IMG/VR virus record: IMGVR_UViG_3300044267_002770
Coordinates: 1 to 27,174 of that record
From: a virus
Taxonomy: Duplodnaviria; Caudoviricetes
Reading direction: 5' to 3' (one strand)
DNA length: 27,174 nt
Below the pieces are notes generated by a model. It searched no databases and was not told where the DNA came from. It saw only the letters and a list, made by a program, of their open reading frames with translations. Position 1 is the stretch's first letter. Every line of letters begins with the position of its first letter. The position numbers were made by a program, and so were the translations under genes. Below, in pieces: positions 7,369 to 27,065 of this stretch.

Positions 7369-7376
7369 TACATTTG
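7369..7376 (+). promoter_or_regulatory. Bacteroidota-type -7 promoter element (TACATTTG)
   Basis: Exact TAnnTTTG match in the 38-nt intergenic gap, 15 nt before the ATG at 7392, with an A-tract upstream. Confidence 0.65.
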
Positions 7377-7391
7377 TAAAAATTCAATAAC

Positions 7392-8579
7392 ATGGCACGT
7401 AGAGTAAAACCTAAGATAAAATATAATAAGAAAAAGAAAACACCTAAGGCTTTTGTTGGAGCTGCAACTGCAGCCCTTGGTGCAGGTAAAATGATTTATG
7501 GTGCTGTTCAAGGTAGAAAAGCTAGAAAGGAACAAGAGGCTTTTGATCAAGATAGGTTGAAAGGACAGGTTAGCTCAGCCACTCAAAAGATGGCAGACGA
7601 GCCTATAGACCAAAGCTATATAGAACAGATGCAAGGTCAGCAAGCTGCTGATAGGGCTTCTGCTATGGGTGCTTTAGCTAAAGATCCTAGAAACGCTCTA
7701 GCAGGGGTTCAAGCTTTAGAGAGTCAAGCTGCAAAGCAACGTACAGATTTATTAGGCATGCAACAAAGAGCTAAAACTTCAGCTATGCAGAACTTAGCTA
7801 GAGAACAGCAAGCTGTAGAGAAGCAGAGGTTGGATGTTGCTGGGGCAGAGTTGGAAGGTATTAGAGGTCAAAAAGCTGCTGCTGAACAGAATATATTTGG
7901 AGGTCTTGAAGATGTGTCTGCTGGAATTGGAGAAGGTGCTTTAACGGAACTTGGATTAGTAAAATCAGAAAAAGGCGGAAAGATAGGTGAAGATGGTGGA
8001 GTAACTCCTGGAGAGTTTGATCATAGTACTAATAAAATAGATATGGTTCAAGATGGAGAGAAGATTGGTGAGGCTACAGGTGGGGAGTTAATACTACCTC
8101 CTGATGATGTTAATGATATTAGATCTGCATTAAAAAATGGAGATAAAGAAGCAGCTTTTAAGCTAATGGAGGATTTGGTAGCTAAATACGATAGCAACGT
8201 TATAGGTGATGATGATGATAGTGAAGCACAGGAAGGTGCTAAAATGAAAGAGCCTACTGTACCGCCTTTAGATGGCGATAGAGCTAACGAAATTGTGAAA
8301 GTTATGAAAAGTAACGCTGATCAGGTTAGAAACGTTGGAGAGCTTCCTTTCGATGAGGATCCAACAAATCCTGCAGGACTTGTTAAGTACGTTGGTGACA
8401 AACTTTCTTTCGATATAGATTCAACCAATAAAGCTGAGATTGACTTTATTAAAAACTACAGAGACTTTCTTATTAAAGATAAAGGAAGAGTTGACGCACC
8501 TAAAAAAGAAATGATGGGTGGTGGATATTTAGCTAAAGTAAAAGCTAGAATGGGTTCTTACATAAAATCAAAAATGTAA
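7392..8579 (+). CDS. Putative ejection/pilot (internal virion) protein, 395 aa
   Basis: Basic N-terminus, then a Gly/Ala hydrophobic stretch (FVGAATAALGAGKMIYGAVQG) and Gln/Ala helical region as in P22 gp7/T7 gp14-type proteins. Contains a PGEFDH..GEATGGE module. First gene after the nozzle gene. Confidence 0.6.
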   Translation: MARRVKPKIKYNKKKKTPKAFVGAATAALGAGKMIYGAVQGRKARKEQEAFDQDRLKGQVSSATQKMADEPIDQSYIEQMQGQQAADRASAMGALAKDPRNALAGVQALESQAAKQRTDLLGMQQRAKTSAMQNLAREQQAVEKQRLDVAGAELEGIRGQKAAAEQNIFGGLEDVSAGIGEGALTELGLVKSEKGGKIGEDGGVTPGEFDHSTNKIDMVQDGEKIGEATGGELILPPDDVNDIRSALKNGDKEAAFKLMEDLVAKYDSNVIGDDDDSEAQEGAKMKEPTVPPLDGDRANEIVKVMKSNADQVRNVGELPFDEDPTNPAGLVKYVGDKLSFDIDSTNKAEIDFIKNYRDFLIKDKGRVDAPKKEMMGGGYLAKVKARMGSYIKSKM

Positions 8580-8582
8580 AAC

Positions 8583-10061
8583 ATGGCTGGAGAAGGTTTA
8601 TTTTTCACAGGAGTTGTTTTAAAGAATAATCGTAACTTATTGCAAGAGCAGGCTACTCGTGATTCTTTGCAGATTCAAAAGGATGAACTTAAGTTGCGAC
8701 AAGATGAGGCTGCTGCTAGGAGGAGAAAAGAAAGAGAGGAAGGTAGTAAAGCAATATCTTATTCTGGAGACGACATAAATGCAAGGCTTCAAGATCCCTA
8801 TAGAACTAATTACGATGAGTATAGAAATTATATGGAGCAAAACTCTTTAGATGTCTATGACTTAGTTCCTGACGCTGTTCAAAAAAGAGGTGATTTTGAA
8901 TCTAACCTTGTTACAGATGGTGAAAAACTAAAGAAAATATCTTTAGACTATAAAATTATAAAAGATAAAATATCTTCTGGGGAAATTGATACTTCAAAAT
9001 TATTAACAAATCCAGAGACGGGGAATTTTATTTTTGAAGAAAACTTCGATAGTATAGTAAATGGTTATAGTGGTGGCGAATCTTTAGATACTTTGATGAG
9101 TGATTTTTCATTAGAGTATAATGACGTTGTAGATGTTGTTGACTTTATAGATCCTAGTAATGGTTTGCTAGATGATATATTAGCAAAGGATGAAAATAAA
9201 CCTAAGGTTGATCAATTTCAAAAAGATGGTAGAGTTACAACTACCACGAATGTTCTTACAGATAATGTTTTAAATCAATTTAAACAAGAATTAAGAGAGA
9301 GCCTTAGGTTAGATAAAGATGGTAACTATGATGTTTTAGAGTTTCAAAGCTTATTACAAGGTCAACAAGATTTTGTTTTTGTTGACGGTTCTTCTGGAGA
9401 TGCTAGAAGAGCTTTTGCTAATACTAGTAAAGAAAATGGTGGTGCTGGTATGGCTGGTAATGTTGGAGACACTTTTTTAAATAAATTAGATCCTAAAAAT
9501 CAAGCGTTTGATCAAGACCTTTACAACCAATATGTAGAGTTTATAATTAGTGAGGAAACGAAGAAAGCTCAAAGTAAATACAAACCACAAGTAAGTGTAA
9601 CTCAAAAACCTTTGGGTGATGCACAAGAAGGTTTATCTCAAGAGGATATTGATTTTCTTACGGGCCCTTCTAAGTCTAAATTATCTTATGGTAATGTTCA
9701 ACTTAAGTTTGATGCAGGAATGTATGATGATGTTACAGATAGGAATATAGAAGTTAACATAGTACCTGAATCTTTGTTGCCAGGTCAAGGTGAGCTTCAA
9801 GAGTTTTTTGAAAAACAATACAAAGATGAGGTAGGAGATACTAACAAAAGTGTTAAAGGTCAAGTTACTAGACTTGGACTGACAGTTGACAATGTTAAAG
9901 TTGCCTCAGTTAAGTTTGGTAAAAAAGAATATTTAATACCTTACGAGTCTATAAGTAGTGAAATAGCAGAACTTAAAAAGACTTCTGTAGGATATAAGAT
10001 AGGTCAATTTGAATCTGAGTCTACCTCTCAAGGTATAGATACCTCAAAATATAATAAATAA
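8583..10061 (+). CDS. Putative ejection (internal virion) protein, 492 aa
   Basis: Acidic and helical with an N-terminal coiled coil. Middle of three genes of increasing size (gp14/gp15/gp16-like arrangement). Stop overlaps the next start (TAATG). Function inferred from position only. Confidence 0.5.
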   Translation: MAGEGLFFTGVVLKNNRNLLQEQATRDSLQIQKDELKLRQDEAAARRRKEREEGSKAISYSGDDINARLQDPYRTNYDEYRNYMEQNSLDVYDLVPDAVQKRGDFESNLVTDGEKLKKISLDYKIIKDKISSGEIDTSKLLTNPETGNFIFEENFDSIVNGYSGGESLDTLMSDFSLEYNDVVDVVDFIDPSNGLLDDILAKDENKPKVDQFQKDGRVTTTTNVLTDNVLNQFKQELRESLRLDKDGNYDVLEFQSLLQGQQDFVFVDGSSGDARRAFANTSKENGGAGMAGNVGDTFLNKLDPKNQAFDQDLYNQYVEFIISEETKKAQSKYKPQVSVTQKPLGDAQEGLSQEDIDFLTGPSKSKLSYGNVQLKFDAGMYDDVTDRNIEVNIVPESLLPGQGELQEFFEKQYKDEVGDTNKSVKGQVTRLGLTVDNVKVASVKFGKKEYLIPYESISSEIAELKKTSVGYKIGQFESESTSQGIDTSKYNK

Positions 10062-13000
10062 TGAATGAAGAAGCATTAAAAGATGCCTACGGTCTTTTTA
10101 CACAATCAGGCTATAATGGCACACAAGATGAGTTTTACACTTTATTATCTGAAAACGCTGAGGCATTTGCAGACTCTTATGGTTTATTTAAGGGATCTGG
10201 ATATAATGGTTCTGAAGATGACTACAAACAACTGCTTGGTTTAAAAAAAAAAGATTCTTCAGTATTGCAAGATGCAGCTGCTCCGAAGGATTCAGGGGTG
10301 TCTCCATCAGTATCTCAAGATGGTCAATCTTCTTTGGAACAAGACGTTCAAGTTAGTTTAGAAGAAAGACTAGCTAAAAGAAAAAACCTACCTATAGAAG
10401 AGCAAATCGCTCTAGCAAAACAAGACGAGTTAAGACCTTTTTACGAAGCTCAAGGATTAAACTTAGATGATAAGTTAAACTTTGAGGCTATAAAAAAATC
10501 TAAAGCTGAAAAGGAAAAGAAAGAAAAAGAAGCTGAGCAGGATCTTAGTTTCTTCTCTAAGTTATATAACAGAATAACTAGCACTGAAGATTTGGAGGAA
10601 GACTTTCAAACTACAGATGAAGATAGAGCTGACTTATACCTTTCTAATAACGAGGAGAATATATTTGAAGCAGAGAAGCAGTACAACATTGCTAAAGCTA
10701 AAGAGATAACTGAGGTATTTTCCCCAGATCAAAGAAAAGAACAATTTGAAGAGCAAGGTATAGACTTAGGTTATATGCCTACAAATTTTATAAAGGTTAA
10801 TGGAGAAGACTTTAGTGTAAAAGAACTTCAAAAGAATTTATACGATAGCGAGTTTATAGATAAACTACAATCTGAAGAGGTTAATGTAGATATTGACAAC
10901 TCTATTGAGGATGAGACCCTTCAATCTTTAATTGACCTCAGGGACAGACAAAAAGAGTCTGGTGGACAGTGGGGTGATATAGCTCAATCTTTCTATGCTG
11001 GTGCTTTGGATCTTTTAGTTGCTGGTCCTACAGAATTTTTAGAGTCAACTTTTGCTACAAACCCTTATCAAAGATCCATAGTTAATGCTATGGGAGGTAG
11101 ACTAGCTTCAAAAGTTAGAAATGAAGCTAACAGGGTAAGAGAAAAAACTAGGGTGTATCAGGAAGATGGGATGACTAAATCTTTACTTAAAGGTAACTTT
11201 TCTGACGCTATGTTCCAAACTGGTAACGCCCTATCTGAGTCTGCTCCTTTAATATTATCTATGTATGCTTCCGCACCTTTAGGAATATCTCAAAAGGCTA
11301 CACTAGCTTTTGCAGGAGTTTCTGCAGGTGGTTTAAAATCCCTTGAACTCAAAGAACAAAGGCTGAAAGGTGAGATAGATATGTCTGATGCTCAAATATT
11401 GTTAAACTCTGTTTTAACTGGTGGTGCTGAATCTTTCTTTGAAAGGTACACCTTAGATGCTGTTAACGCTAGTAGAAAGGTTTTTGCTTTAGGTAAAATA
11501 ACTCCAGGTGAGATTGCTGAAGGGTTTACTAAAGGCTTCCTTAGACAAGCCAGAGTAGAGGGATTATCTGAGGGTGCAACAGAGTTGTCTAACATGTTTA
11601 CAGACCTTATAACAAGAGATATTGACTACGAGAAGGGTGAACTAAAAGAGACTGCTATTGGTCTTGAAGAGGTTGCTGTAAGATTTTCTGATGCAGCTAT
11701 GATTGGATCTATCATGGGTGGTGGTATTCACACTGTACCTTACATGGCTAAGTCTATGTCTAAGTTTAAAATATTAGATGAGAATATAGCCGTTCTATTT
11801 ACAATGGAAGATGGGTCAACTCAAAGCATGAGTAGAGCAGACGCTTTAAAGTTTGTTAAAAACCCTGAGGTTGCAGAGAGAGTTAGAAGTGGTGCAGTAA
11901 CAATGGACGCTTCTATGAATGATATTGCTAAACAACAAGTAGAAGAGATACTTTATGGTTTCTACGCACCTGACGCTGTAGCTTCAAGAGAAGTTATGCG
12001 AGAAAAAGAGAGTGGCGTTCAAAACATTCTTGATAGGATTAGAGACGCAGAAGAGGTTTCTACAGAAGACGTGAACAGTTTATCTCAAGCTGTATCTGAA
12101 ATGGAGGCTGAAGGCAAGAAATCTAAGTATAACATATCTGAAAGTACTAAAGCAACTAGAGCTAAACTAAACGCAATACTTAAACAAAAAGGTATTCAAA
12201 TAGTAGATGCTGTTGCTTCTCAAGACGTATCTATGTCTAAGGTTACTGAAACTGTAGACGCTACAAAGATAGAGAGTCAAGAGCAGTATAACTCTGTTAA
12301 GAAGCAGTTGGAGGATGGTGAGAGAAAACCAACGGTGGTTCAATCTCAAAACCAAAGTGGTATAAAGGTTAATGGTGAAACATCTCAAACGTCAGAAATA
12401 ACTCAAGGTAAATTTAAAAGTGTTGCTGCGGCTAGGAACGCTATGAAAGACTTTGAAGCTAAGAGAGATGCTGCAAAGAAAGGTGAGATATTAGACAGTG
12501 ACTTATTTCCTGTTAACAATAAAATATTTTTAAAGGCAAAGAAAGAAACTCTTGATGAGATACCTCAAGAGGTTATAGATAATAACGATTACCACGTATT
12601 AACTTCAGACAAGGAAGGTTTAACACAAGAGCAAAGAATCTCTAGAATGGAGAAACTTAAGTCTATGTTAGATAATGCTGGTGCAACTTATTATACCGTT
12701 CAGGATGTTTCCAATGGGGTTGCTAAAGAAAGCCTTGTAGTAACGGGAATAGATAACGCTACCGCTTTAAATCTAGGTAATCAGTTTCAGCAAGAGTCTA
12801 TCTTCTCATCTAAGGATGGAAAGATGTTTGGTGATGGTCGTGTAGTTCCTTTAAGTAATGACGTGGTAAAAGGTCCAGACGCTAGAAAAAAACAAGACGT
12901 AACCATAATGAATGTTAGTGGTAGAAAAGTTTCTATGCACACAGGCTTAGATAAACTTAAAACTAGTTATGGTAAAAACTTTAATTCAGATAACATTCAC

Positions 13001-16000
13001 AAGTTAGATGAGAGTAATGCTGACTATGATGCTGAGTTATTCCAAGGCTTAGATGATAGCAGAAAAAGAGCTTTAGGTTTCGCCTTTAAACTTCTTAACT
13101 CTATTGGTGGTCTCAACGTTACCGTTGTTAGAAATAGTAAGGCTATGGAAAAGCAACTAGAGGCTATAGGTCAAGATCCTTCCAACAAGAGAGGATCTTT
13201 CTTTAGAGGTTCTGACAAGACTATATATGTAAACCTTGAAACTGTTCGTGGAAATACTTTGTTCCATGAGATTATTCATCCTATGGTTGACTTCATTAAG
13301 AAGACTGACCCAGCTCTATATAAAAGAATAGAGGCTGAGGTTAAAGAGAGTGATATTAAAAGAAGAGTAATGAAGGATGGTCGTAGAATGAAGGGTTCTT
13401 ACCTTGATTGGGCTAAATCAAACTATGAAGGTTTATCTGAAGAGGCATTAATAGAAGAGGCTTTTGCTGAGATGATGGGTGACGCTGCTTATGGTCACTT
13501 TGTAAATAAGCAATCTACCTTATCTAAAATTAGAGAAGTTATAAGAGAGATACTCTCTAGGATTGGTGTTGTATCTCCTTTTGATAATGTTGAAGCTATA
13601 GATTTAAATCAAATGTCTTTGTATGATATAAGAACAAATCTAGCTGAAGCTTTAGTAAATGGTAGAAAAATTAACGTTGGAGGTGTAGAATTTGAGGTTG
13701 GAGATATACAAGCTGATAAAGATAAAGTTAACAACTCTATTAGAATGCAGGTTGATAAGTCTGACATCAACTCTGAACTTGGCGTTGTAAACATAAACAT
13801 ACCAGATAATATTCAAACTCAAGAGATAAGATTTCAGGCTCCTGAATTTTATCCAAACTTTGACGTATCAAAAGTAAAAAGAGGTAGTATAAAAGAGTTT
13901 AATGGTCAGAAGGCTTTACTTATGTTGACTGATAGATCAGCATCTGGTATGGTTGTATCGCCAACAGGAGTTAGACATGAGTTCGATGGTGGTGTATTTT
14001 ATCCTTACCAAGAAGATACAGGTGTTTGGGCATTCTCAGATAAGGCTGCAGCAACTAGAATGATTAACGCAGCTAGAGAGAGTGATGGTTTAGTTTTCTT
14101 AACTGCTATGGCTCCAGGATCTATTGATGGTAGTGTTAATATGTTTGATTACGTTATGAAAGAACTTGATCAGGCCATAAAAGACAAGAGAGCTACTAAA
14201 AAAGAAGTTGTAGAGTTCCTTAATAAAAAGATGACTATTAAGTCTTTTGATTCTAAAGCAAAAGATCAAGGCATAAAAACATCTAAAGTTAAGTCTGTAA
14301 AAGAGTTTAGTAACATAGTTTTATCTATGCCTCAGGCTTTTGGTGTTAGAAAAGATATAATAAGAAAATCTATACAGAGTAAAATATTTGAGAAGTGGGG
14401 TATCCCTTCTATGCAAGAAATATACAACACTGTTAATCAAGATATTATAAAAGACCTGAAGGGTAATCCTATAGTATCTGCTATTAGAATAGATACAGAA
14501 GCTGGATATGTGGATTCTAGAACTGATGATAAAATAAAAGATCATCCTACTTATCCATACGTTGTTAAGGGAGAACCCTTAATGATATTTGATGAGTCTG
14601 TTGACGCTTCAGAAGTTTGGGGTGAACTTAACTTAGCTGATAAGTTTTTAATAGATTCTAGAACAGGAGAAAAATTAAGTGAAGGTACGACTCAAGCTAG
14701 AAGACAAAGAAAGATTGAGATGGCTAGACCTGTTGTTGATATTAGAATGCAGGCTCCTCAAGAAGAAACAGAGAATGTAGTTTACACTTCAGGATTAACA
14801 ACAATAGCTTTTGATATTGCTAAAGCAGTTGTAGATGCTGATTACAAGGCAGGTAAATACACTACCAAAGCTATAGCTAGTATTCCTTCGCTTAAAATTG
14901 ACAAGCCTAGAAAGCAATTTGAAGGTTACGACATAAGGTTGTCTAAGTTATTAGCTAAACCATTTGGCTCTCACTCTAACGAAGAGATAAAAGAGATTAT
15001 GGTTAGAAACAGAGGTGATCTTCAAGCTGAACTTCTTAGAGTTGATGACAATCTTAAGTTATTAAAAAACGCAATAAAAGATTCTAACATAACTCCTGAG
15101 CAAGTTAATGATCTTCTACATAATGTTGAAGACATAAAAACTATGGAGAAGTCTGAACTTAGAACAGCTCTTCTAGAGATGAGAACTCATATAGATGAGT
15201 TGAGTAGAACACTTATTAGAGAGGGTCTAGTAGCGGGACAGACTATGTTTACCATTGATTCTAATATGGGATTATATGTTACAAGATCTTACAGACAGTT
15301 TGAGACTAAGAATTGGGAGCAAACAGATAACGATATAATACAAAACGCTAAAGACTTTTTATATAGAGAGGTTAAGAATCAAAACATAAGAGATGTTGAG
15401 GATGGTAAGATAGATAAAGATGGCAACCTGATAACGCTTATGTCTGAAGATGCTATTTTAAATAAAGCTCAAGAGGCTTACGATAAACTAGTTGAGGAAA
15501 AAGATTTCTTAAAGTTCTCAGGTGGATCTTCTAGCTTAGAAGGACTAACAAGGGTTAACTCTATATTTATGCAAAAGAAAGTTATCCCTGAAGAGATAAG
15601 AGAGTTGTGGGGTGAGATAGATAGTCCTTTAATAAATTATAGTAACACTATATCTAAAGTTGCTAAAACAATCTCTGCTGAGAGAATGTATAGAGAACTT
15701 AATAATATAGGTCAAGGCAAGTTTATATCAGATAACTACGATAGAACATCAACTAGAAATAAGTTAGAGGGTTATAAGTGGGGAGACTTAGATGGAAAGT
15801 ATGTGGACGATGAGATGTATGTTGTAATGAATCAAGTTAACAGAACCTTTGAGAAAAATGGTTTCCAGAGAGCTTACGATGCTTACATGCAACTTGTTTT
15901 ATTCAATAAGAAAATGAAGACTGTATGGAATCCTGGTACACATGCTAAAAATATTATAGGTAACAGCTCTTTTGCCATGATGAATGGTCATTTAAGTCCT

Positions 16001-17506
16001 GATCTTAAACAAATTTATCAAGATGGTAAGCTATCTATAGAAGCGTTTTATAACATGAAGAGTGAAGATTTTAAAGAGCTGTATGATAAACTTATAAGAC
16101 TAGGTGTTGTAAACTCTTCTGCCTCTTTAGCTGAAATTCAAAATATATCAGAAGACCTTAGAAACACTAAGTTTGATTTGACTGAGTATCTTAAAGATAA
16201 AAATGGTAAGATACAAAAAAGAATGGCTAAAGTATATGGTACGATTAGAGAGGGTATATCTTCATTTGATGAAAAACTAATGAAGGCTTATCAAGCTGAG
16301 GATGATGTATGGAAGATATTTGGATACTTATCTGAAAGAGGTAGATATATAAAGGCTGGTTTAGATGTTGCATTAGCTGAAGAAACAGCTGCTAAAAACA
16401 TTAGAAACCTTTACCCTAACTATAACGAGATACCTCGTATAATAAGACTCCTTGGTCGTTCTCCTTTAGTTGGATCATTCGTTGCCTTCCAGGCTGAATC
16501 TGTTCGTAACGCTAAGAACACTGTGATGCTGGGATTTGAAGAGATGGGTAGTAACAATTCAAAAATAAGAAGAATTGGTGCTACAAGAATAGCAGGAACT
16601 ATTGCTACAATGACTCTAATGGAAGGTCTTCAGTTATATACAGCTCAATTCTTAGGTGAGTTCTTAGGTTTTGGTGGAGAAGATGATGACGATGTAGAGA
16701 GAAGAAAGATGCGTCTTTTACTACCTGAATGGGACGCACCAGGAAATATAGCCTACATGTTTAGAGGGTTTTTAGAATCTAAACAATCTGAAGATCAGAC
16801 TGAAAGAGATAGATACTTTGACTATATAAACTTCTCTAGTATATCTGGTGTTGGTTACATGAAGGATATTATGAGATTAGCATTTACAGATATAGATACA
16901 AGGCTTGGTCAAGATAGTGCTTTAAATATTCTTGAAAAAATATACGCTCCATTCTTGGGTCAAGAGATGACCTCTATAGCTGTGACAGAGGCTTTAACAA
17001 ATAAAGGTGGAAAAGTATTTAATCAGACTGATGGTCCACTTAAAGCTCTTGGAAAGATTATTATATACGTTGGTGATAAAGTTCAGCCTGGTGTTGGTAG
17101 GGTAGCTCAAAGAGGTGTTGAGTCTTTATATGATGTTGACTCTGACTTAGTTCCAGGATATGAAATGCTTGCTATATTTGGTATAAGAATTAATAGAGTT
17201 AATGTTAACAAAGGTTTAGCAATAAAATCTAACTTCTTATTTAAAGATATGGTAAGTAGAGTTGGTAAAGGAATATTAAAAGATCCTTTTGCATTAAGAG
17301 AAGAGGCAAGATCAAACTCTAGCTTTAACGAGGATCTAAATAAGTTAGCTGACCTTATAGCTGCAGCAAGATTAAATAGTATTAACGGAGAAAATGTTAA
17401 AGCTATTCTTTCTAACTCTAGAGTATCTAGACCAGTTATAGATGAAGCTTATAATAGATACCTTGACAGGTATTTAGAAGATGCTATAAGTGTTGACGAT
17501 AAATAA
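10061..17506 (+). CDS. Large polyvalent internal virion/ejection protein, 2481 aa (SAM-lyase-like domain, zincin HExxH domain, unknown cassette, conserved helical C-terminus)
   Basis: N-terminal 30-aa tandem repeat and Gly/Ala-rich membrane-type helices. TLFHEIIH at 13256-13279 with downstream EEAFAE. C-terminal KTVWNPGTHAKN / EDDVWK / YPNY..IP / FVAF motifs typical of podophage large ejection proteins. Confidence 0.7.
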   Translation: MNEEALKDAYGLFTQSGYNGTQDEFYTLLSENAEAFADSYGLFKGSGYNGSEDDYKQLLGLKKKDSSVLQDAAAPKDSGVSPSVSQDGQSSLEQDVQVSLEERLAKRKNLPIEEQIALAKQDELRPFYEAQGLNLDDKLNFEAIKKSKAEKEKKEKEAEQDLSFFSKLYNRITSTEDLEEDFQTTDEDRADLYLSNNEENIFEAEKQYNIAKAKEITEVFSPDQRKEQFEEQGIDLGYMPTNFIKVNGEDFSVKELQKNLYDSEFIDKLQSEEVNVDIDNSIEDETLQSLIDLRDRQKESGGQWGDIAQSFYAGALDLLVAGPTEFLESTFATNPYQRSIVNAMGGRLASKVRNEANRVREKTRVYQEDGMTKSLLKGNFSDAMFQTGNALSESAPLILSMYASAPLGISQKATLAFAGVSAGGLKSLELKEQRLKGEIDMSDAQILLNSVLTGGAESFFERYTLDAVNASRKVFALGKITPGEIAEGFTKGFLRQARVEGLSEGATELSNMFTDLITRDIDYEKGELKETAIGLEEVAVRFSDAAMIGSIMGGGIHTVPYMAKSMSKFKILDENIAVLFTMEDGSTQSMSRADALKFVKNPEVAERVRSGAVTMDASMNDIAKQQVEEILYGFYAPDAVASREVMREKESGVQNILDRIRDAEEVSTEDVNSLSQAVSEMEAEGKKSKYNISESTKATRAKLNAILKQKGIQIVDAVASQDVSMSKVTETVDATKIESQEQYNSVKKQLEDGERKPTVVQSQNQSGIKVNGETSQTSEITQGKFKSVAAARNAMKDFEAKRDAAKKGEILDSDLFPVNNKIFLKAKKETLDEIPQEVIDNNDYHVLTSDKEGLTQEQRISRMEKLKSMLDNAGATYYTVQDVSNGVAKESLVVTGIDNATALNLGNQFQQESIFSSKDGKMFGDGRVVPLSNDVVKGPDARKKQDVTIMNVSGRKVSMHTGLDKLKTSYGKNFNSDNIHKLDESNADYDAELFQGLDDSRKRALGFAFKLLNSIGGLNVTVVRNSKAMEKQLEAIGQDPSNKRGSFFRGSDKTIYVNLETVRGNTLFHEIIHPMVDFIKKTDPALYKRIEAEVKESDIKRRVMKDGRRMKGSYLDWAKSNYEGLSEEALIEEAFAEMMGDAAYGHFVNKQSTLSKIREVIREILSRIGVVSPFDNVEAIDLNQMSLYDIRTNLAEALVNGRKINVGGVEFEVGDIQADKDKVNNSIRMQVDKSDINSELGVVNINIPDNIQTQEIRFQAPEFYPNFDVSKVKRGSIKEFNGQKALLMLTDRSASGMVVSPTGVRHEFDGGVFYPYQEDTGVWAFSDKAAATRMINAARESDGLVFLTAMAPGSIDGSVNMFDYVMKELDQAIKDKRATKKEVVEFLNKKMTIKSFDSKAKDQGIKTSKVKSVKEFSNIVLSMPQAFGVRKDIIRKSIQSKIFEKWGIPSMQEIYNTVNQDIIKDLKGNPIVSAIRIDTEAGYVDSRTDDKIKDHPTYPYVVKGEPLMIFDESVDASEVWGELNLADKFLIDSRTGEKLSEGTTQARRQRKIEMARPVVDIRMQAPQEETENVVYTSGLTTIAFDIAKAVVDADYKAGKYTTKAIASIPSLKIDKPRKQFEGYDIRLSKLLAKPFGSHSNEEIKEIMVRNRGDLQAELLRVDDNLKLLKNAIKDSNITPEQVNDLLHNVEDIKTMEKSELRTALLEMRTHIDELSRTLIREGLVAGQTMFTIDSNMGLYVTRSYRQFETKNWEQTDNDIIQNAKDFLYREVKNQNIRDVEDGKIDKDGNLITLMSEDAILNKAQEAYDKLVEEKDFLKFSGGSSSLEGLTRVNSIFMQKKVIPEEIRELWGEIDSPLINYSNTISKVAKTISAERMYRELNNIGQGKFISDNYDRTSTRNKLEGYKWGDLDGKYVDDEMYVVMNQVNRTFEKNGFQRAYDAYMQLVLFNKKMKTVWNPGTHAKNIIGNSSFAMMNGHLSPDLKQIYQDGKLSIEAFYNMKSEDFKELYDKLIRLGVVNSSASLAEIQNISEDLRNTKFDLTEYLKDKNGKIQKRMAKVYGTIREGISSFDEKLMKAYQAEDDVWKIFGYLSERGRYIKAGLDVALAEETAAKNIRNLYPNYNEIPRIIRLLGRSPLVGSFVAFQAESVRNAKNTVMLGFEEMGSNNSKIRRIGATRIAGTIATMTLMEGLQLYTAQFLGEFLGFGGEDDDDVERRKMRLLLPEWDAPGNIAYMFRGFLESKQSEDQTERDRYFDYINFSSISGVGYMKDIMRLAFTDIDTRLGQDSALNILEKIYAPFLGQEMTSIAVTEALTNKGGKVFNQTDGPLKALGKIIIYVGDKVQPGVGRVAQRGVESLYDVDSDLVPGYEMLAIFGIRINRVNVNKGLAIKSNFLFKDMVSRVGKGILKDPFALREEARSNSSFNEDLNKLADLIAAARLNSINGENVKAILSNSRVSRPVIDEAYNRYLDRYLEDAISVDDK

Positions 17507-17540
17507 TTTGAAAACACTATATAATTAATTATTTAATTAC

Positions 17541-17548
17541 TAAATTTG
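17541..17548 (+). promoter_or_regulatory. Bacteroidota-type -7 promoter element (TAAATTTG) for a non-coding unit
   Basis: Exact TAnnTTTG downstream of an AT-only tract. No ATG on + between it and the terminator. Confidence 0.55.
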
Positions 17549-17552
17549 TAGT

Positions 17553-17656
17553 ACTTTTCTAAGGCTCCATCCTGGAGCAGTTTGCTTTTTTGTTCGCATT
17601 CATAGATTAGTTTTTGGTTGTTTAAGGAGGAGGGGTAGTTCCCTCCTTTTTTTTTT
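17553..17656 (+). ncRNA. Candidate ~100-nt small RNA (5' hairpin, U-rich single-stranded core, terminator)
   Basis: Promoter at 17541, hairpin GCTCCA-TCC-TGGAGC (17564-17578), no ATG, intrinsic terminator. The core shares TTTTTGGTTGTTTAA with the antisense strand of the start region of the gene at 22338. Confidence 0.5.
17628..17656 (+). terminator. Rho-independent terminator
   Basis: AGGAGGG-GTAGTT-CCCTCCT stem-loop running into a 10-T tract (17647-17656). Confidence 0.85.
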
Positions 17657-17658
17657 AG

Positions 17659-17666
17659 TATATTAG
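17659..17666 (+). promoter_or_regulatory. Variant -7 element (TATATTAG), probable leaderless transcript
   Basis: TAnnTTAG followed by 4 nt and then ATG (17671). Same geometry as 18547-18554. Confidence 0.45.
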
Positions 17667-17670
17667 CTGT

Positions 17671-17802
17671 ATGGAAATAGGTATACAATTAGTCAATGGA
17701 GTTACGTTTGGATTTAGATTATTTGCTCCAACAGAATCTATACCATACAACGAACTCCAGCTATTTGCTGGAGTTATATGCTTCTATGTTATTTGGGATT
17801 AA
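17671..17802 (+). CDS. Small hydrophobic protein, 43 aa (MEIGIQLVNGVTFGFRLFAPTESIPYNELQLFAGVICFYVIWD); not in the ORF track
   Basis: Translated by hand. Own promoter-like element. Stop overlaps the convergent stop at 17799-17801. Confidence 0.65.
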   Translation: MEIGIQLVNGVTFGFRLFAPTESIPYNELQLFAGVICFYVIWD

Positions 17803-17954
17803 TCCTCACGTGTAGAGCATTCGTCTTGATCTCCACAGCATTCTTCTTCTTCAGGGTCAACAAGATCTATTATCCAGGATTCAAACAAATTTTTTTTTGA
17901 TTCATCAGATCTTTTTAAAGCCTCTCTTAAAGCTTCATCTCTGTCGTGTAACAT
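17799..17954 (-). CDS. Small acidic Cys-containing protein, 51 aa (MLHDRDEALREALKRSDESKKNLFESWIIDLVDPEEEECCGDQDECSTRED); not in the ORF track
   Basis: Translated by hand. AT-rich leader. Last gene of the minus-strand arm. Confidence 0.65.
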   Translation of the reverse strand: MLHDRDEALREALKRSDESKKNLFESWIIDLVDPEEEECCGDQDECSTRED

Positions 17955-17968
17955 TACTATACTATTTT

Positions 17969-18017
17969 AAAAAGTATTGGGGGGTGCAGACGACCAAATC
18001 TTTAACCCCCCGAATAC
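17969..18017 (-). terminator. Terminator-like hairpin on the minus strand
   Basis: GTATT(C)GGGGGGT...ACCCCCCAATAC followed by TTTTT, with inner AGAT/GTCT pairing. Confidence 0.5.
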
Positions 18018-18077
18018 AAGAACAACCTAACCCGTATTGCTTGAGGCTAGGATTTAATTATGCAGCACTCACGCAGC

Positions 18078-18542
18078 TTACTCTCGTTTTTTAGAACCCC
18101 TACCTAAGATGGTATCGACTGTAATATCGACCTCCTTTTGATTTGATGGGACATATACGTCTAATCTTTGATCAGTATCATAAAGATACTTTAAAAACAG
18201 CTTGAATCGCATCTTAAACTCAGGGGTTCTTATTCCTTTTGTTTCTATGATAAAACCTTTCTCTAAATTAATAAAGTCTGGCGTATAAGATATATTTCTT
18301 ATGTTACCAGGCTTTTTCTTAAATGTTGTTTTACCTTTTGTTTTTCCCTTATCCATAAGTAGACCCTCGAACTTGAATTTTTCTACAAGCTCGAAGGTCT
18401 TTCCTTCATACTCGTGGGGGATCTTTGCTTTTTTAAGGGCTCTGTAGCAGTAAAGCTCTAGACCTGAGGCAAATGTAATTCCATCTGCGATGTGTTTCTT
18501 AGCTTTAGTTATCTGCTTTCCTTTTCTTCTCTTGAATCGCAT
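18078..18542 (-). CDS. PD-(D/E)xK endonuclease, T7 endonuclease I/DUF1064-like (probable Holliday junction resolvase)
   Basis: DGITFASGLE ... YTPDF ... IIETKG motifs. Confidence 0.8.
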   Translation of the reverse strand: MRFKRRKGKQITKAKKHIADGITFASGLELYCYRALKKAKIPHEYEGKTFELVEKFKFEGLLMDKGKTKGKTTFKKKPGNIRNISYTPDFINLEKGFIIETKGIRTPEFKMRFKLFLKYLYDTDQRLDVYVPSNQKEVDITVDTILGRGSKKRE

Positions 18543-21854: not shown

Positions 21855-22338
21855 CTGTAATATATTTAGGTTTAACGTATCTGTTAGTTTTCTTTTTATT
21901 TACCTGCATTTCATTCTCCCACCCCCTAGAGTTAAGCCAAGTTCTAGGATTCTTTCTATATTTTTTATCTGGTGTTAAGTCAACGTAAGTCTTAACTGCT
22001 TTTATAGCTTCTCCCATTTCGTTAAGAGTCAATGTCATAAACGTTATTTTAGTTTGTGGTCTATCTACCTTTTTATTGTATAGATTCCAAAACATTTCAA
22101 ACGCTTTGTTTTTTCTTTCAGATTCAGTATGAGGCTTTTTAGTATCACTAAACCTGAGATCTATGATAGCAAAATGATTAACAATATTATTGAAAACGCA
22201 TTCTGATTCCATGTCATTATTATAAATGGATTGATGAACATTATCTGATGTGTGAAAATTAATAACACTACCATCAATCTCAATGAACTCTACTTTATTT
22301 ATATTAACAATGTCTGTGTTTGATACCCTGTACTTCAT
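21844..22338 (-). CDS. Phage replication initiator/helicase loader-like protein, 164 aa (start revised to MKYRVS)
   Basis: FEMFWNLYNKK...YRKNPRTWLNSRGWENE is the common C-terminal domain of phage initiators, and the gene is directly upstream of dnaB. Strong A-rich leader before the ATG at 22338. The longer ORF call runs through a structured intergenic element. Confidence 0.65.
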   Translation of the reverse strand: MKYRVSNTDIVNINKVEFIEIDGSVINFHTSDNVHQSIYNNDMESECVFNNIVNHFAIIDLRFSDTKKPHTESERKNKAFEMFWNLYNKKVDRPQTKITFMTLTLNEMGEAIKAVKTYVDLTPDKKYRKNPRTWLNSRGWENEMQVNKKKTNRYVKPKYITDER

Positions 22339-22361
22339 AGTTTTTTTTGGTTGTTTAAAAG

Positions 22362-22460
22362 TAAAAGAGGCTGACTTGCATACTGGCGGTAGACACATAA
22401 GATCTACCTCAATAGACGTATGCTTATACAAGAAAAATCTTCATACGCCAGCCTCTTTTA
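22362..22460 (-). ncRNA. Structured intergenic element (multi-stem, 12-bp closing helix)
   Basis: TAAAAGAGGCTG (22362-22373) / CAGCCTCTTTTA (22449-22460); inner GCATAC/GTATGC and GGTAGA/TCTACC. Confidence 0.55.
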
Positions 22461-22462
22461 AA

Positions 22463-22735
22463 TTAGAATGGTAAGTCGTCAGCTACTTTTTCTTTCTTAG
22501 CTTCAGGTTTCCAAGTGTCTACCTCAACGTAATGAGTTTTACCATACTCATCAGCACCATTACGTTTTTTTACAACCTTTAAAGTTATAAATTTATCACC
22601 TGTTTTACCATCGAAGATATAATCTCCAGCCTCTTGTTTTAACTTAGTTAAGTTCAAAGAGAATTGTACTAAGTCTCCGTCAAATTTCTCTACTCCGTTT
22701 CCAACGTAGATTTTTTCTGTTGTTTTGTTACTCAT
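22463..22735 (-). CDS. Single-stranded DNA-binding protein-like, 90 aa
   Basis: Beta-rich short protein with D.YGKTH and acidic DDLPF C-terminus, located in the recombination/replication cluster. Confidence 0.65.
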   Translation of the reverse strand: MSNKTTEKIYVGNGVEKFDGDLVQFSLNLTKLKQEAGDYIFDGKTGDKFITLKVVKKRNGADEYGKTHYVEVDTWKPEAKKEKVADDLPF

Positions 22736-22934
22736 AGCTATTAGCTTTAAAATAATTAATTAACGCATCCCTTTCTGTTATTTCTAAGCATTTTAAAATC
22801 CTCTTGGCGTGTTTAATTTTAAACTCGTCAGGCTTCTCTAAATACTTAAGTAAGGTAGGTCTGCTTAACCCTACTCTGTTGGCTAACCAACGTGCACTTA
22901 TTTCTTTTAATTCCATTTTATCTTTTAAAGTCAT
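22728..22934 (-). CDS. Cro/XRE-like helix-turn-helix protein, 68 aa
   Basis: SARWLANRVGLSRPTLLKYLEKP. Confidence 0.8.
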   Translation of the reverse strand: MTLKDKMELKEISARWLANRVGLSRPTLLKYLEKPDEFKIKHAKRILKCLEITERDALINYFKANSYE

Positions 22935-23698: not shown

Positions 23699-24264
23699 TA
23701 CACTAAGGTTTTAGATAATTTAAGAACTTTATTAAGTTTATCTTCTTGAGTCTTAGTCATAGTGTAACCAGCCATCTTTTGCTCTACCACACTACCTTTA
23801 CCATCCTCAATAGCCTTCATCATACTCTTATATTGAGAGTCTGTTAGCTTAGGTTTAGATGTAGATTTTTTAGGTGTAGCAGGTGTTCCTTTAACTGCAC
23901 CATTACCATCATCATCTCCAGTAACTACACCAACAAAAGACGCAAGTGCGTATCTCCTAGCGTAAGATATAGCAGAGCCTACACCATGTGCATCTTCCTT
24001 TGCTGGTATGTAGCAGGTCGATGCTAAGTATTCTCCACTGGAGTGTGATAGGATTGTTGTTACCCCACCTACATCTGTAGGCATTTGAATAATAGCAAGT
24101 TCGTTCTCTGCTAGTAGTTTACGAACAGAGTCCCATACTGCACCAAGATCAGCATAGCTTGACTTGAAAAAAGGGTTCTTTGAATTTTCTTTAGCAGGTC
24201 TTAATTGAGACTGCACTTTTGATAAGGCAAGGGTCAACTTGCCAATTGTTTCTGACTTTTCCAT
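23698..24264 (-). CDS. erf: ERF-family single-strand annealing protein
   Basis: KNPFFKSSYADL, TILSHSSGE, GSAISYARRYAL...GDDDGN. Confidence 0.9.
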   Translation of the reverse strand: MEKSETIGKLTLALSKVQSQLRPAKENSKNPFFKSSYADLGAVWDSVRKLLAENELAIIQMPTDVGGVTTILSHSSGEYLASTCYIPAKEDAHGVGSAISYARRYALASFVGVVTGDDDGNGAVKGTPATPKKSTSKPKLTDSQYKSMMKAIEDGKGSVVEQKMAGYTMTKTQEDKLNKVLKLSKTLV

Positions 24265-24299
24265 AGTTTTTGGTTTTTAAATTTAATTAACTTCTGATG

Positions 24300-25910: not shown

Positions 25911-26308
25911 TACACATGCCCTCCATAGTTTTCGTTATTAACATCATACCTTGTTTCTCTATCTGATTCGGGTTCATTCATATGAGGGACTTCATCAACC
26001 CCTGTACCATACTCAAGTATAGCATCTTTAAATTTATTATCTAAAGATTGTTCCCACTTACTTGTGTTTTCATTTAACCAATCATCAGTATCTTCTAATG
26101 ATATATCTTTAGGTAGTTCGATAGTTATTTTAGCCACCTTGTGATACACTCTGCGTTCAGTTATCGTAACGCTACGCATACCAAAATGCTTTATATCGTT
26201 AGTTAGTAAGGCTCTATTAAGTTCAGCCATATCTTTAACATGATCTTTTTCTGGTCTGTTTCGATTGTATTGGTCAATCAAAAACTTTTGGTGTTCTTCA
26301 CTTCTCAT
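25910..26308 (-). CDS. Hypothetical protein, 132 aa
   Basis: A-rich leader (TAAAACTAAAAATT-ATG), operon packing. Confidence 0.75.
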   Translation of the reverse strand: MRSEEHQKFLIDQYNRNRPEKDHVKDMAELNRALLTNDIKHFGMRSVTITERRVYHKVAKITIELPKDISLEDTDDWLNENTSKWEQSLDNKFKDAILEYGTGVDEVPHMNEPESDRETRYDVNNENYGGHV

Positions 26309-26325
26309 AATTTTTAGTTTTAAGG

Positions 26326-26730
26326 TTATTGTAATTCTACAACCATGTTAATATTAAATACTTCGTAGTAATCTCCTATATCTGAATGTATAGCGTTGTC
26401 CTCTCCTATACATACCATAGTTCTTCCAAATACATTAAATTCATCATCACTACAACTATCATAAGCCATATCCCATATAAAAGAGTTTACTGCATCTACA
26501 TCCTTATACCCCTCGTGCCATTTAAGGTGGTTTCCATGATAGATAACATAATCTGTTGTCTCATCTACAAGATCATCATTATCATTATACATAACATACT
26601 TCTGCTTATAATCCTCTTTAGTAAAGGCAGGGAAATCTCCCTCAAGTAATTTGTGTTCGTTCATGATAGCATCTAATTCTTTCTCATCTCTTTTTGGTAC
26701 TGCTATATGTACCTCGCTTCTGTATCCCAT
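26326..26730 (-). CDS. Conserved phage early hypothetical protein (MGYRSEV family), 134 aa
   Basis: MGYRSEV...LKW..Y.DV...IGED motif pattern seen in many phages. Confidence 0.8.
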   Translation of the reverse strand: MGYRSEVHIAVPKRDEKELDAIMNEHKLLEGDFPAFTKEDYKQKYVMYNDNDDLVDETTDYVIYHGNHLKWHEGYKDVDAVNSFIWDMAYDSCSDDEFNVFGRTMVCIGEDNAIHSDIGDYYEVFNINMVVELQ

Positions 26731-26735
26731 AATTT

Positions 26736-27065
26736 CTAGTTGTTTTGGTTATAATCTTTAATAAATTCTACTACTGCGTCATAAGTATCACCCATCTCAG
26801 CAATTTGAAGGTGGTGCATTATATCTGACATCTGACCATCTTCAGCTACATCAAAGCATTTATGTATGACAGGCATAAGCCAATCCCAAGATACATTGTA
26901 AGATAGTTCGTGTTCTTCATACCAAACATTATTATGATTGTAGTTTAATAAACCACTATTGAACACCTCTGTATCCAATCCCATAAATTCAGCAATCAAT
27001 ATATTGTTCATAATAATATTGTCTTGCTTACTTGTTTCTATTGCATCTTTACTTCTTAAGTCCAT
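26736..27065 (-). CDS. Conserved Bacteroidota-phage hypothetical protein (LIAEFMG..SWDWLMPV..VVEFI family), 109 aa
   Basis: Motifs as named; alternative start at 27011. Confidence 0.75.
   Translation of the reverse strand: MDLRSKDAIETSKQDNIIMNNILIAEFMGLDTEVFNSGLLNYNHNNVWYEEHELSYNVSWDWLMPVIHKCFDVAEDGQMSDIMHHLQIAEMGDTYDAVVEFIKDYNQNN

Follow-up and report, generated by a model that had tools for sequence, protein, structure and literature searches.

The question raised by this locus is whether a short unit lying behind the structural genes of a marine phage encodes a trans-acting antisense RNA aimed at the start codons of the phage’s own replication and recombination genes, as an earlier note had proposed. 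The window, meaning the whole stretch of DNA analyzed (27,174 nt), is an entire 27-kb phage contig with a CheckV completeness of 43%; complete relatives of the phage measure 61–64 kb. Structural genes occupy the + strand up to 17506, and the minus strand carries replication and recombination genes (resolvase, DnaB, initiator-like, HTH, exonuclease VIII and Erf). The initiator-like gene (ATG 22338) matches the replication initiation protein family phrog_270 (E = 3.8e-10) and its stop overlaps the dnaB start; the erf gene matches PF04404. The name ‘ssb’ for the 90-aa gene with its ATG at 22735 is a label by inference only, with no Pfam or useful PHROG match and a structure prediction that is unusable (pLDDT 45.7). 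No integrase was seen in the ORF list of G001, as judged by eye only. All 85 phage-collection matches of the 471-aa structural protein of G001 belong to Flavobacterium, Cellulophaga and Maribacter phages plus one uncultured record (26–29% identity), which suggests that the host of the window phage is probably a member of the Flavobacteriia.

The elements of the unit and its neighbors on the same strand are as follows.

10061..17506, + strand: giant virion structural gene (phrog_22602); its stop precedes the RNA unit, with no terminator between
17541..17548, + strand: predicted -7 promoter box of the TAnnTTTG form, TAAATTTG, host housekeeping sigma type
17553..17656, + strand: predicted small RNA, ~103 nt, its 5’ end placed from the promoter box
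17564..17578, + strand: 5’ hairpin of 5–6 bp, lineage-specific, from the predicted fold
17597..17625, + strand: predicted seed, anti-AUG (CAU at 17597–99 and 17601–03) plus the U-rich tract UUUUUGGUUGUUUAA, from matches, pairing and accessibility
17624..17656, + strand: intrinsic terminator, a GGAGGGG/CCCUCC stem plus U tract (hairpin 17624–17651, then a T run)
17671..17802, + strand: conserved 43-aa gene with a beta-strand-like pattern, starting 14 nt past the terminator

The promoter box, 5’ hairpin, U-rich core and terminator read by the earlier note are all present, and the + strand of the unit contains no ATG. The description of a self-contained, ATG-less unit is accurate in its second half; the first half has to be qualified, in that the conserved 43-aa ORF starts on the same strand directly downstream. 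The predicted fold with both hairpins has a z score of -2.98, and none of 200 shuffles was equally stable.

The TAnnTTTG-type promoter consensus is that of PMC7366714. A -33 TTTG box is absent at the usual spacing from the box at 17541–17548, and PMC7366714 reports that a -33 box was likewise not identified for F. johnsoniae. Housekeeping-type boxes also lie in front of erf (24307, minus strand) and of the late gene at 7392 (box at 7369), and because this box type precedes both early and late genes, the timing of expression is not readable from the promoter type. An AT-rich near-palindrome (17518–17540) adjoins the promoter box upstream and is kept in close relatives; it is possibly an operator for the HTH protein at 22728–22934. 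The window stretch occurs in five sequencing runs, each time as an assembled contig. The contig from run X2 shows even coverage over its entire 5.5 kb, as DNA would give, and no contig begins and ends at the RNA unit; being assembled, these contigs are uninformative on expression either way.

When the promoter–CAT/U-rich–terminator unit was sought in relatives, a UGGUU tract and a hairpin were found behind the giant virion gene in all 92 junction rows. These are the rows reaching 200 nt past the virion-gene stop; they repeat contigs, with 46 being distinct, and for ~10 of the 46 the terminator was read from separate sequence views of the same loci. A TAnnTTTR box is present at 45 of the 46 distinct junctions, which were not selected on the box, the L177 type being a variant. 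Among 37 distinct units that had been chosen by the TAnnTTTR pattern, the ten box variants differ only at positions 3, 4 and 8. The distance from box to terminator varies about twofold among relatives, with predicted RNA lengths of about 55–105 nt. Each of G000–G004 contains one true unit (single-copy in 4/4 complete relatives). UGGUU precedes 3/3 detected unit terminators (the strict detector missed the G003 unit) as compared to 0/11 other terminators in G001–G004.

The structure is maintained as well. The terminator stem covaries, with 97.7% of 216 cells paired over eight pairs and two-sided changes in five of them; this pairing percentage was reached by 0 of 500 shuffles, and the terminator pair probability is 0.88–1.0 across 17 RNA types. 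The 43 unit rows that matched the pattern show four stem variants of the 5’ hairpin (GCTCC, GTTCC, GCACC and TTCCC arms), each of them fully paired; the hairpin is missing from short RNA types. Predicted folds of the 17 types mostly consist of a 5’ stem-loop (often with CAU in the loop), an unpaired UGGUU and the terminator; the last UGGUU has a mean predicted unpaired probability of 0.80. The anti-AUG that had been read as part of the U-rich seed is present in 13 of the 17 types and missing from four, and so is not universal, unlike UGGUU (17/17). Conservation of a minus-strand peptide in place of the seed, which would have spoken against the proposal, was rejected: the minus-strand ATGs give 2 to 31 codons or none, with lengths that are unrelated. 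These comparisons support the reading that what is conserved is an RNA gene on the + strand and not a peptide on the minus strand.

Searches were also made beyond this group. The strict unit pattern gave 0 matches in cellular genome contigs; a looser pattern gave 12 cellular matches, of which the two from Bacteroidota are 3’ UTRs. Covariance model R1 gave one weak match in 121 Bacteroidota genomes, also a 3’ UTR, and no relative of the resolvase was found in genomes. No unit was detected by R1 in elemo, Calle_1, phi38:1, phi18:3, phi19:3, phi46:3, Panino and the uncultured MW202828, the seven matches in these eight phage records being all 3’ UTRs or intragenic; an R1 search would miss an unrelated RNA doing the same job.

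The complementarity of the unit to minus-strand start regions was compared to shuffled controls. Predicted targets are listed with accessibility-corrected energies, computed for 17 starts by a custom IntaRNA-like script with opening energies.

22334..22359, minus strand: best predicted target, leader and AUG of the initiator-like gene (ATG 22338), -16.2 kcal/mol
26730..26745, minus strand: predicted target, leader of a 134-aa early ORF (ATG 26730), -13.1 kcal/mol
26305..26330, minus strand: predicted target, start of a 132-aa early ORF (ATG 26308), -12.1 kcal/mol
24264..24280, minus strand: predicted target, erf leader, -11.3 kcal/mol
22723..22748, minus strand: weaker predicted target, ssb-like start, -8.9 kcal/mol

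The matches reported earlier for the initiator, erf and ssb leaders were all found. The 15-mer 17611–17625 = 22344–22358 is the longest exact match of the unit elsewhere in the window, and the next named one is a 12-mer at erf (17608 = 24264). A match of at least 15 nt arose in 12 of 5000 dinucleotide shuffles for 23 minus-strand start regions and in 10 of 1000 shuffles for the entire window. Duplex energies of the 46-nt core against 26 start regions were tested with 1000 mononucleotide and 1000 dinucleotide shuffles, and the five named starts all fell within p = 0.001–0.03: initiator 0.002/0.001 (mono/di), 26308 0.002/0.004, 26730 0.004/0.007, ssb 0.015/0.013 and erf 0.028/0.025. Averaging over the five best sites gave p = 0.002, and the single best site alone 0.03/0.054. 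Nominal values were also obtained for two starts that had not been named: 0.020/0.015 for the late gene at 10061 and 0.028/0.029 for the resolvase. Of all 45-nt tiles of the window, on either strand, the one at the initiator start pairs best. After accessibility correction, the late gene at 10061 (-11.3 kcal/mol) is level with erf, and the remaining 11 starts are at -8.0 kcal/mol or weaker.

Pairing is biased to early over late leaders. In four complete relatives, 51 of 161 leaders on the opposite strand, which is mostly early and includes a small gene block that may not be, had z < -2, as compared to 6 of 121 on the same strand (heuristic gene starts, 60 shuffles per start). Per genome, the counts were 7/39, 18/41, 17/44 and 9/37 on the opposite strand and 1/30, 4/27, 1/32 and 0/32 on the same strand. 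The initiator was the top-ranked start in G001, G002 and G003 and ranked tenth in G004.

Whether seed and leader change together was assessed by scoring each RNA against its own and other leaders. Among 17 automatically clustered RNA types, with relatedness ignored and the ‘operon head’ correction not in effect, own leaders fitted better for the initiator (p = 5e-5 by energy, 0.002 by longest match), ssb (0.0008 and 0.0007, unadjusted) and erf (0.003 and 0.005, unadjusted). None of twelve further genes remained significant once corrected, dnaB and a 147-aa gene being nominal by energy (p ~0.025), and a hand-picked set of 16 types returned the same three genes. With independent pairs taken from a DnaB tree, the literal initiator leader scored 7/10 (p = 0.17), ssb 5/9 and erf 5/8, none of which is significant. 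In some lineages an ORF of 34–36 codons is inserted before the initiator, and the RNA then matches the leader of that ORF, in L045 with a 14-nt exact match. When the operon-head leader was scored, i.e., that of the first gene after the ssb terminator, 9 of 10 independent pairs agreed (p = 0.011); this definition is post hoc, having been chosen once the exceptions were seen, and L045 was scored from an upstream ATG. With the leader shuffled instead of the RNA, p <= 0.05 was obtained in 13/17 types for the operon head, 9/14 for ssb and 8/15 for erf, as compared to 1/16, 0/16 and 2/16 for three control genes. The evidence for covariation is fairly good for the head of the initiator-dnaB operon, as defined post hoc, and suggestive for other leaders, with ssb and erf failing the tree-based control. 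Covariation could also arise if leaders share a style within a lineage or if the RNA was copied repeatedly from its target.

Two further observations concern this region. The inserted ORF of L014, L045, L080, L151 and L229 encodes a hydrophobic 34–36-aa product, lies between ssb and the initiator and overlaps the initiator start; it could be a translationally coupled leader peptide. A longer pairing between the terminator arm of the RNA and that of ssb was rejected, as no covariation was visible by eye and similar arms occur at other terminators.

Because the open stretch of a conserved unit mirrors early-gene starts, the unit likely specifies a small RNA that damps early translation. Host RNA polymerase would start near 17553 and stop near 17656. 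The resulting trans-acting RNA of ~100 nt would pair over the A-rich leader and AUG of the initiator, and more weakly with other early genes, thereby hiding the upstream adenines and the AUG used by Bacteroidota ribosomes and blocking translation. Repression of the initiator would likely also lower helicase output, given that the initiator stop overlaps the dnaB start. More genome copies, and more late-operon transcription entering the unit, would raise the level of the RNA, and the result would be a brake on replication and early genes. That the RNA blocks initiation at the head of the initiator operon and on other free-standing early leaders, as a brake growing with template number and late transcription, is considered fairly probable. 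A more inclusive scheme is offered tentatively and is doubtful as a whole: phages of Bacteroidota would take advantage of hosts that do without Shine–Dalgarno pairing, early genes would carry a leader of the AACC/AAACU type that late genes avoid, and one RNA, copied from the initiator’s terminator-plus-leader and inserted in the late operon, would shut off the early class, feed back on replication as genomes accumulate and double as the leader of a late gene.

If the main reading is correct, an abundant group of marine phages would possess a switch from early to late, or a brake on copy number, in which an RNA represses replication and early genes as a class. The unit would also allow a direct test of leaders lacking a Shine–Dalgarno (SD) sequence as regulatory addresses, and the natural seed–leader pairs of the 17 RNA types are ready cognate and non-cognate reporter controls.

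The nature of the target sequence bears on where such an RNA would act. Bacteroidota lack SD sequences and use upstream adenines instead (PMC6847099). In a survey of the first 80 of 120 loci, drawn from 14 of 64 collection parts and with taxa taken from record titles, the target 15-mer followed by ATG opened an ORF of at least 100 codons in 13 of 39 Bacteroidota matches and 1 of 41 other matches (Fisher p = 2.5e-4). The 15-mer thus appears to be a generic Bacteroidota leader motif, so that host targets and partly compositional matching are both possible. The earlier caveat that A-rich leaders resemble one another is therefore partly borne out, while the pairing exceeds that of shuffled controls. 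This enrichment in front of long Bacteroidota ORFs favors a reading in which the RNA is made but acts mainly on host mRNAs that have AACCAAAA-type leaders (a partial shut-off), the phage leaders imitating those of the host; with a host-type promoter, the RNA could be made at once on infection. The seed, however, tracks the phage’s own operon-head leader, and host mRNAs as the main targets are judged unlikely. Action on host mRNAs and the early-gene brake can both hold.

The gene downstream suggests another role, and its context was examined separately. Of 47 distinct contexts, 46 have an ORF of at least 35 codons that starts no more than 70 nt past the terminator, and the 47th has a GTG; a different frame was scored in two of these 46, both of which visibly contain the 43-aa start. 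The 43-aa protein has no PHROG or Pfam family match; a profile search with it found 24 proteins, most of 42–64 aa. Homologs in another phage group adjoin or overlap the stop of the gene before them, a giant virion-like gene in 24 of 28 loci. Because they are coupled to a virion gene there, the RNA unit gives the impression of an insertion, most simply read as an RNA cassette placed between two genes of the late operon. The 43-aa gene, whose ATG lies ~20 nt or less from the U tract and so leaves no room for a promoter of its own, probably belongs to the late operon and is reached when transcription reads through the terminator.

This arrangement would also fit a unit serving mainly as an attenuator-type leader at the 5’ end of the 43-aa gene, in which an early mRNA or protein on the U-rich tract sets read-through. 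The unit, with its terminator on the same strand, lies directly upstream in all 51 ORF loci that have 150 nt of upstream sequence (6 of 57 loci were too short to score), the 43-aa ATG adjoins the U tract, and the seed runs up to the terminator base. Against this, G127 (99% complete) retains the RNA unit without the 43-aa gene, and the distant homologs have a terminator upstream in 0 of 28 loci. An antiterminator fold is not predicted and no covarying alternative helix was found among the 17 types; a helix between the RNA 5’ end and the terminator base was rejected for lack of covariation (p = 0.6). A chiefly attenuating function is accordingly improbable. A leader peptide is not encoded in the window’s unit, which has no + strand ATG. 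A type I toxin–antitoxin pair was rejected, since the RNA is on the same strand as the 43-aa gene and is not complementary to its mRNA; its pairing with the 43-aa ORF start is worse than that of shuffles (-7.8 vs a mean of -10.2, p = 0.82).

A similarly small chance is given to the unit being only a late-operon terminator with a U-rich 3’ UTR, or the relic of a reversed terminator-plus-leader copy, with no function in trans. A GGAGGGG/CCCCUCC terminator stands ahead of the initiator leader in many relatives; in reverse, this module reads as an anti-leader plus hairpin. Such hairpin-preceded early starts resemble the unit reversed, and these modules are the next-best matches of R1; the RNA gene may have begun as a copied initiator terminator-plus-leader module behind a promoter. 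Two Bacteroidota MAGs and phage MW202828 also have a U-rich UGGUU tract followed by a terminator, in each case a plain 3’ UTR. A mere terminator or relic does not account for a promoter box kept at nearly all junctions, for compensated variants of the 5’ hairpin or for a seed and leader that change together. In Elemovirus, moreover, the same virion gene ends with a bare terminator ~12 nt past its stop, and UGGUU precedes none of seven terminators. That the RNA acts as a decoy or substrate of a U-rich RNA-binding protein, with its complementarity a by-product of origin, is the least probable reading, in that the short, single-stranded invariant UGGUU and the binding of RbpB by FopS RNAs (PMC11697453) would suit it, but the early-versus-late bias and the own-leader fit are left unexplained.

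The favored reading, an antisense brake on early translation, was compared to known systems. At Rfam gathering thresholds there was no match in the window nor at any unit in 12 relatives. Translation of many early and replication mRNAs of phage T4 is repressed at the start codon by RegA, and CopA of plasmid R1, a copy-number antisense RNA, holds down translation of the initiator in proportion to copy number. The proposed RNA would resemble both in these respects; RegA, though, is a protein, and CopA is encoded in cis with full complementarity to its target.

The closest likeness is to FopS and GibS of Bacteroides thetaiotaomicron, which repress by pairing over start regions (PMC7366714, PMC11697453). 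FopS/GibS and the unit share a host-sigma (sigma-ABfr type) promoter, a single-stranded seed, an intrinsic terminator and pairing over SD-less start codons, which is predicted here. FopS, as described in PMC11697453, is a chromosomal family of 12–15 copies with a 5’-end seed, termed R1/R1’ there, and host susC targets, and one FopS-like sequence occurs in a Caudovirales phage. The unit, in contrast, is single-copy and phage-borne, has its most conserved tract beside the terminator and not at the 5’ end, and matches the phage’s own early leaders. With the FopS model (RF04319, cut-off 56 bits), the best score in the window was 14.2 bits, off the unit, and among six loci scanned two short relatives, L092 and L126, reached 22; FopS membership was rejected on these scores and on the single copy in each of G000–G004.

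Among phage RNAs, c4 antisense RNA of P1 and P7 is alike in blocking translation of the phage’s own mRNA by partial pairing near the ribosome binding site (PMC12197685). It controls an antirepressor in temperate enterophages, whereas the predicted targets here are replication and recombination genes as a class; the c4/CI antisense RNA family gave nothing at E < 5 over 17450–18100. Lambda OOP and aQ and P22 sar are likewise phage-encoded regulatory RNAs in phage development or replication, with one phage gene target each (PMC12197685), and lambda PreS/LPR1 is a phage RNA that targets host genes and enhances dnaN translation (bioRxiv 10.1101/2024.10.31.621285). The phage sRNAs in the available text of the review PMC12197685 come from enterobacteria and Pseudomonas phages, and the term ‘Bacteroid’ is absent from that text; PMC5335546 refers to six putative ncRNAs of phi38:1 in its Supplementary Table S4. 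No paper was found on the unit or on a Bacteroidota phage sRNA acting against early leaders in a search that covered few subscription journals. The claim that no such system is described in these phages thus stands for this element, and is tempered by the likeness to FopS/GibS and by the one phage-borne FopS. By analogy, the unit is an undescribed phage sRNA candidate that would work like FopS/GibS.

Several other structured or repeated elements were observed nearby. In the 20 gaps examined of a sister group (L553–L576), ~580–710 nt after the start of the small-gene homolog, the convergent junction contains a hairpin with a UUG-rich loop of ~30 nt together with a terminator-like hairpin on the opposite strand. 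No clear target of this loop RNA, possibly another antisense RNA of unrelated origin, was found within 6 kb. Between ssb and the initiator leader, the hairpin (window 22362–22460, minus strand) bears different structured inserts in several lineages (also L035, L066, L014, L045, L039, L056, L047). The window’s version folds at -37.9 kcal/mol over 135 nt, and the form in L035, L066, L014 and L045 has overlapping helices resembling a double pseudoknot. These inserts have no Rfam match and are possibly ribozymes or other new cis elements. Past the resolvase, positions 17955–18080 (minus strand) form a structured noncoding element of two hairpins, the second combining a long GC stem, a 21-nt loop and a U run; the element occurs in close relatives only, and a short GCTGCGTGAGTGCT motif is duplicated in L038 and L043. 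A 25-nt inverted repeat (18262–18286/22443–22467, 84% complementary) links the resolvase coding region to the ssb–initiator intergenic region. A weak Rfam tRNA match (35.5 bits over 144 nt) was seen at L047:3970–4113. Lastly, a 28-nt direct repeat (26748–26775/27067–27094, 96% identical) lies just upstream of two neighboring early ORF starts.
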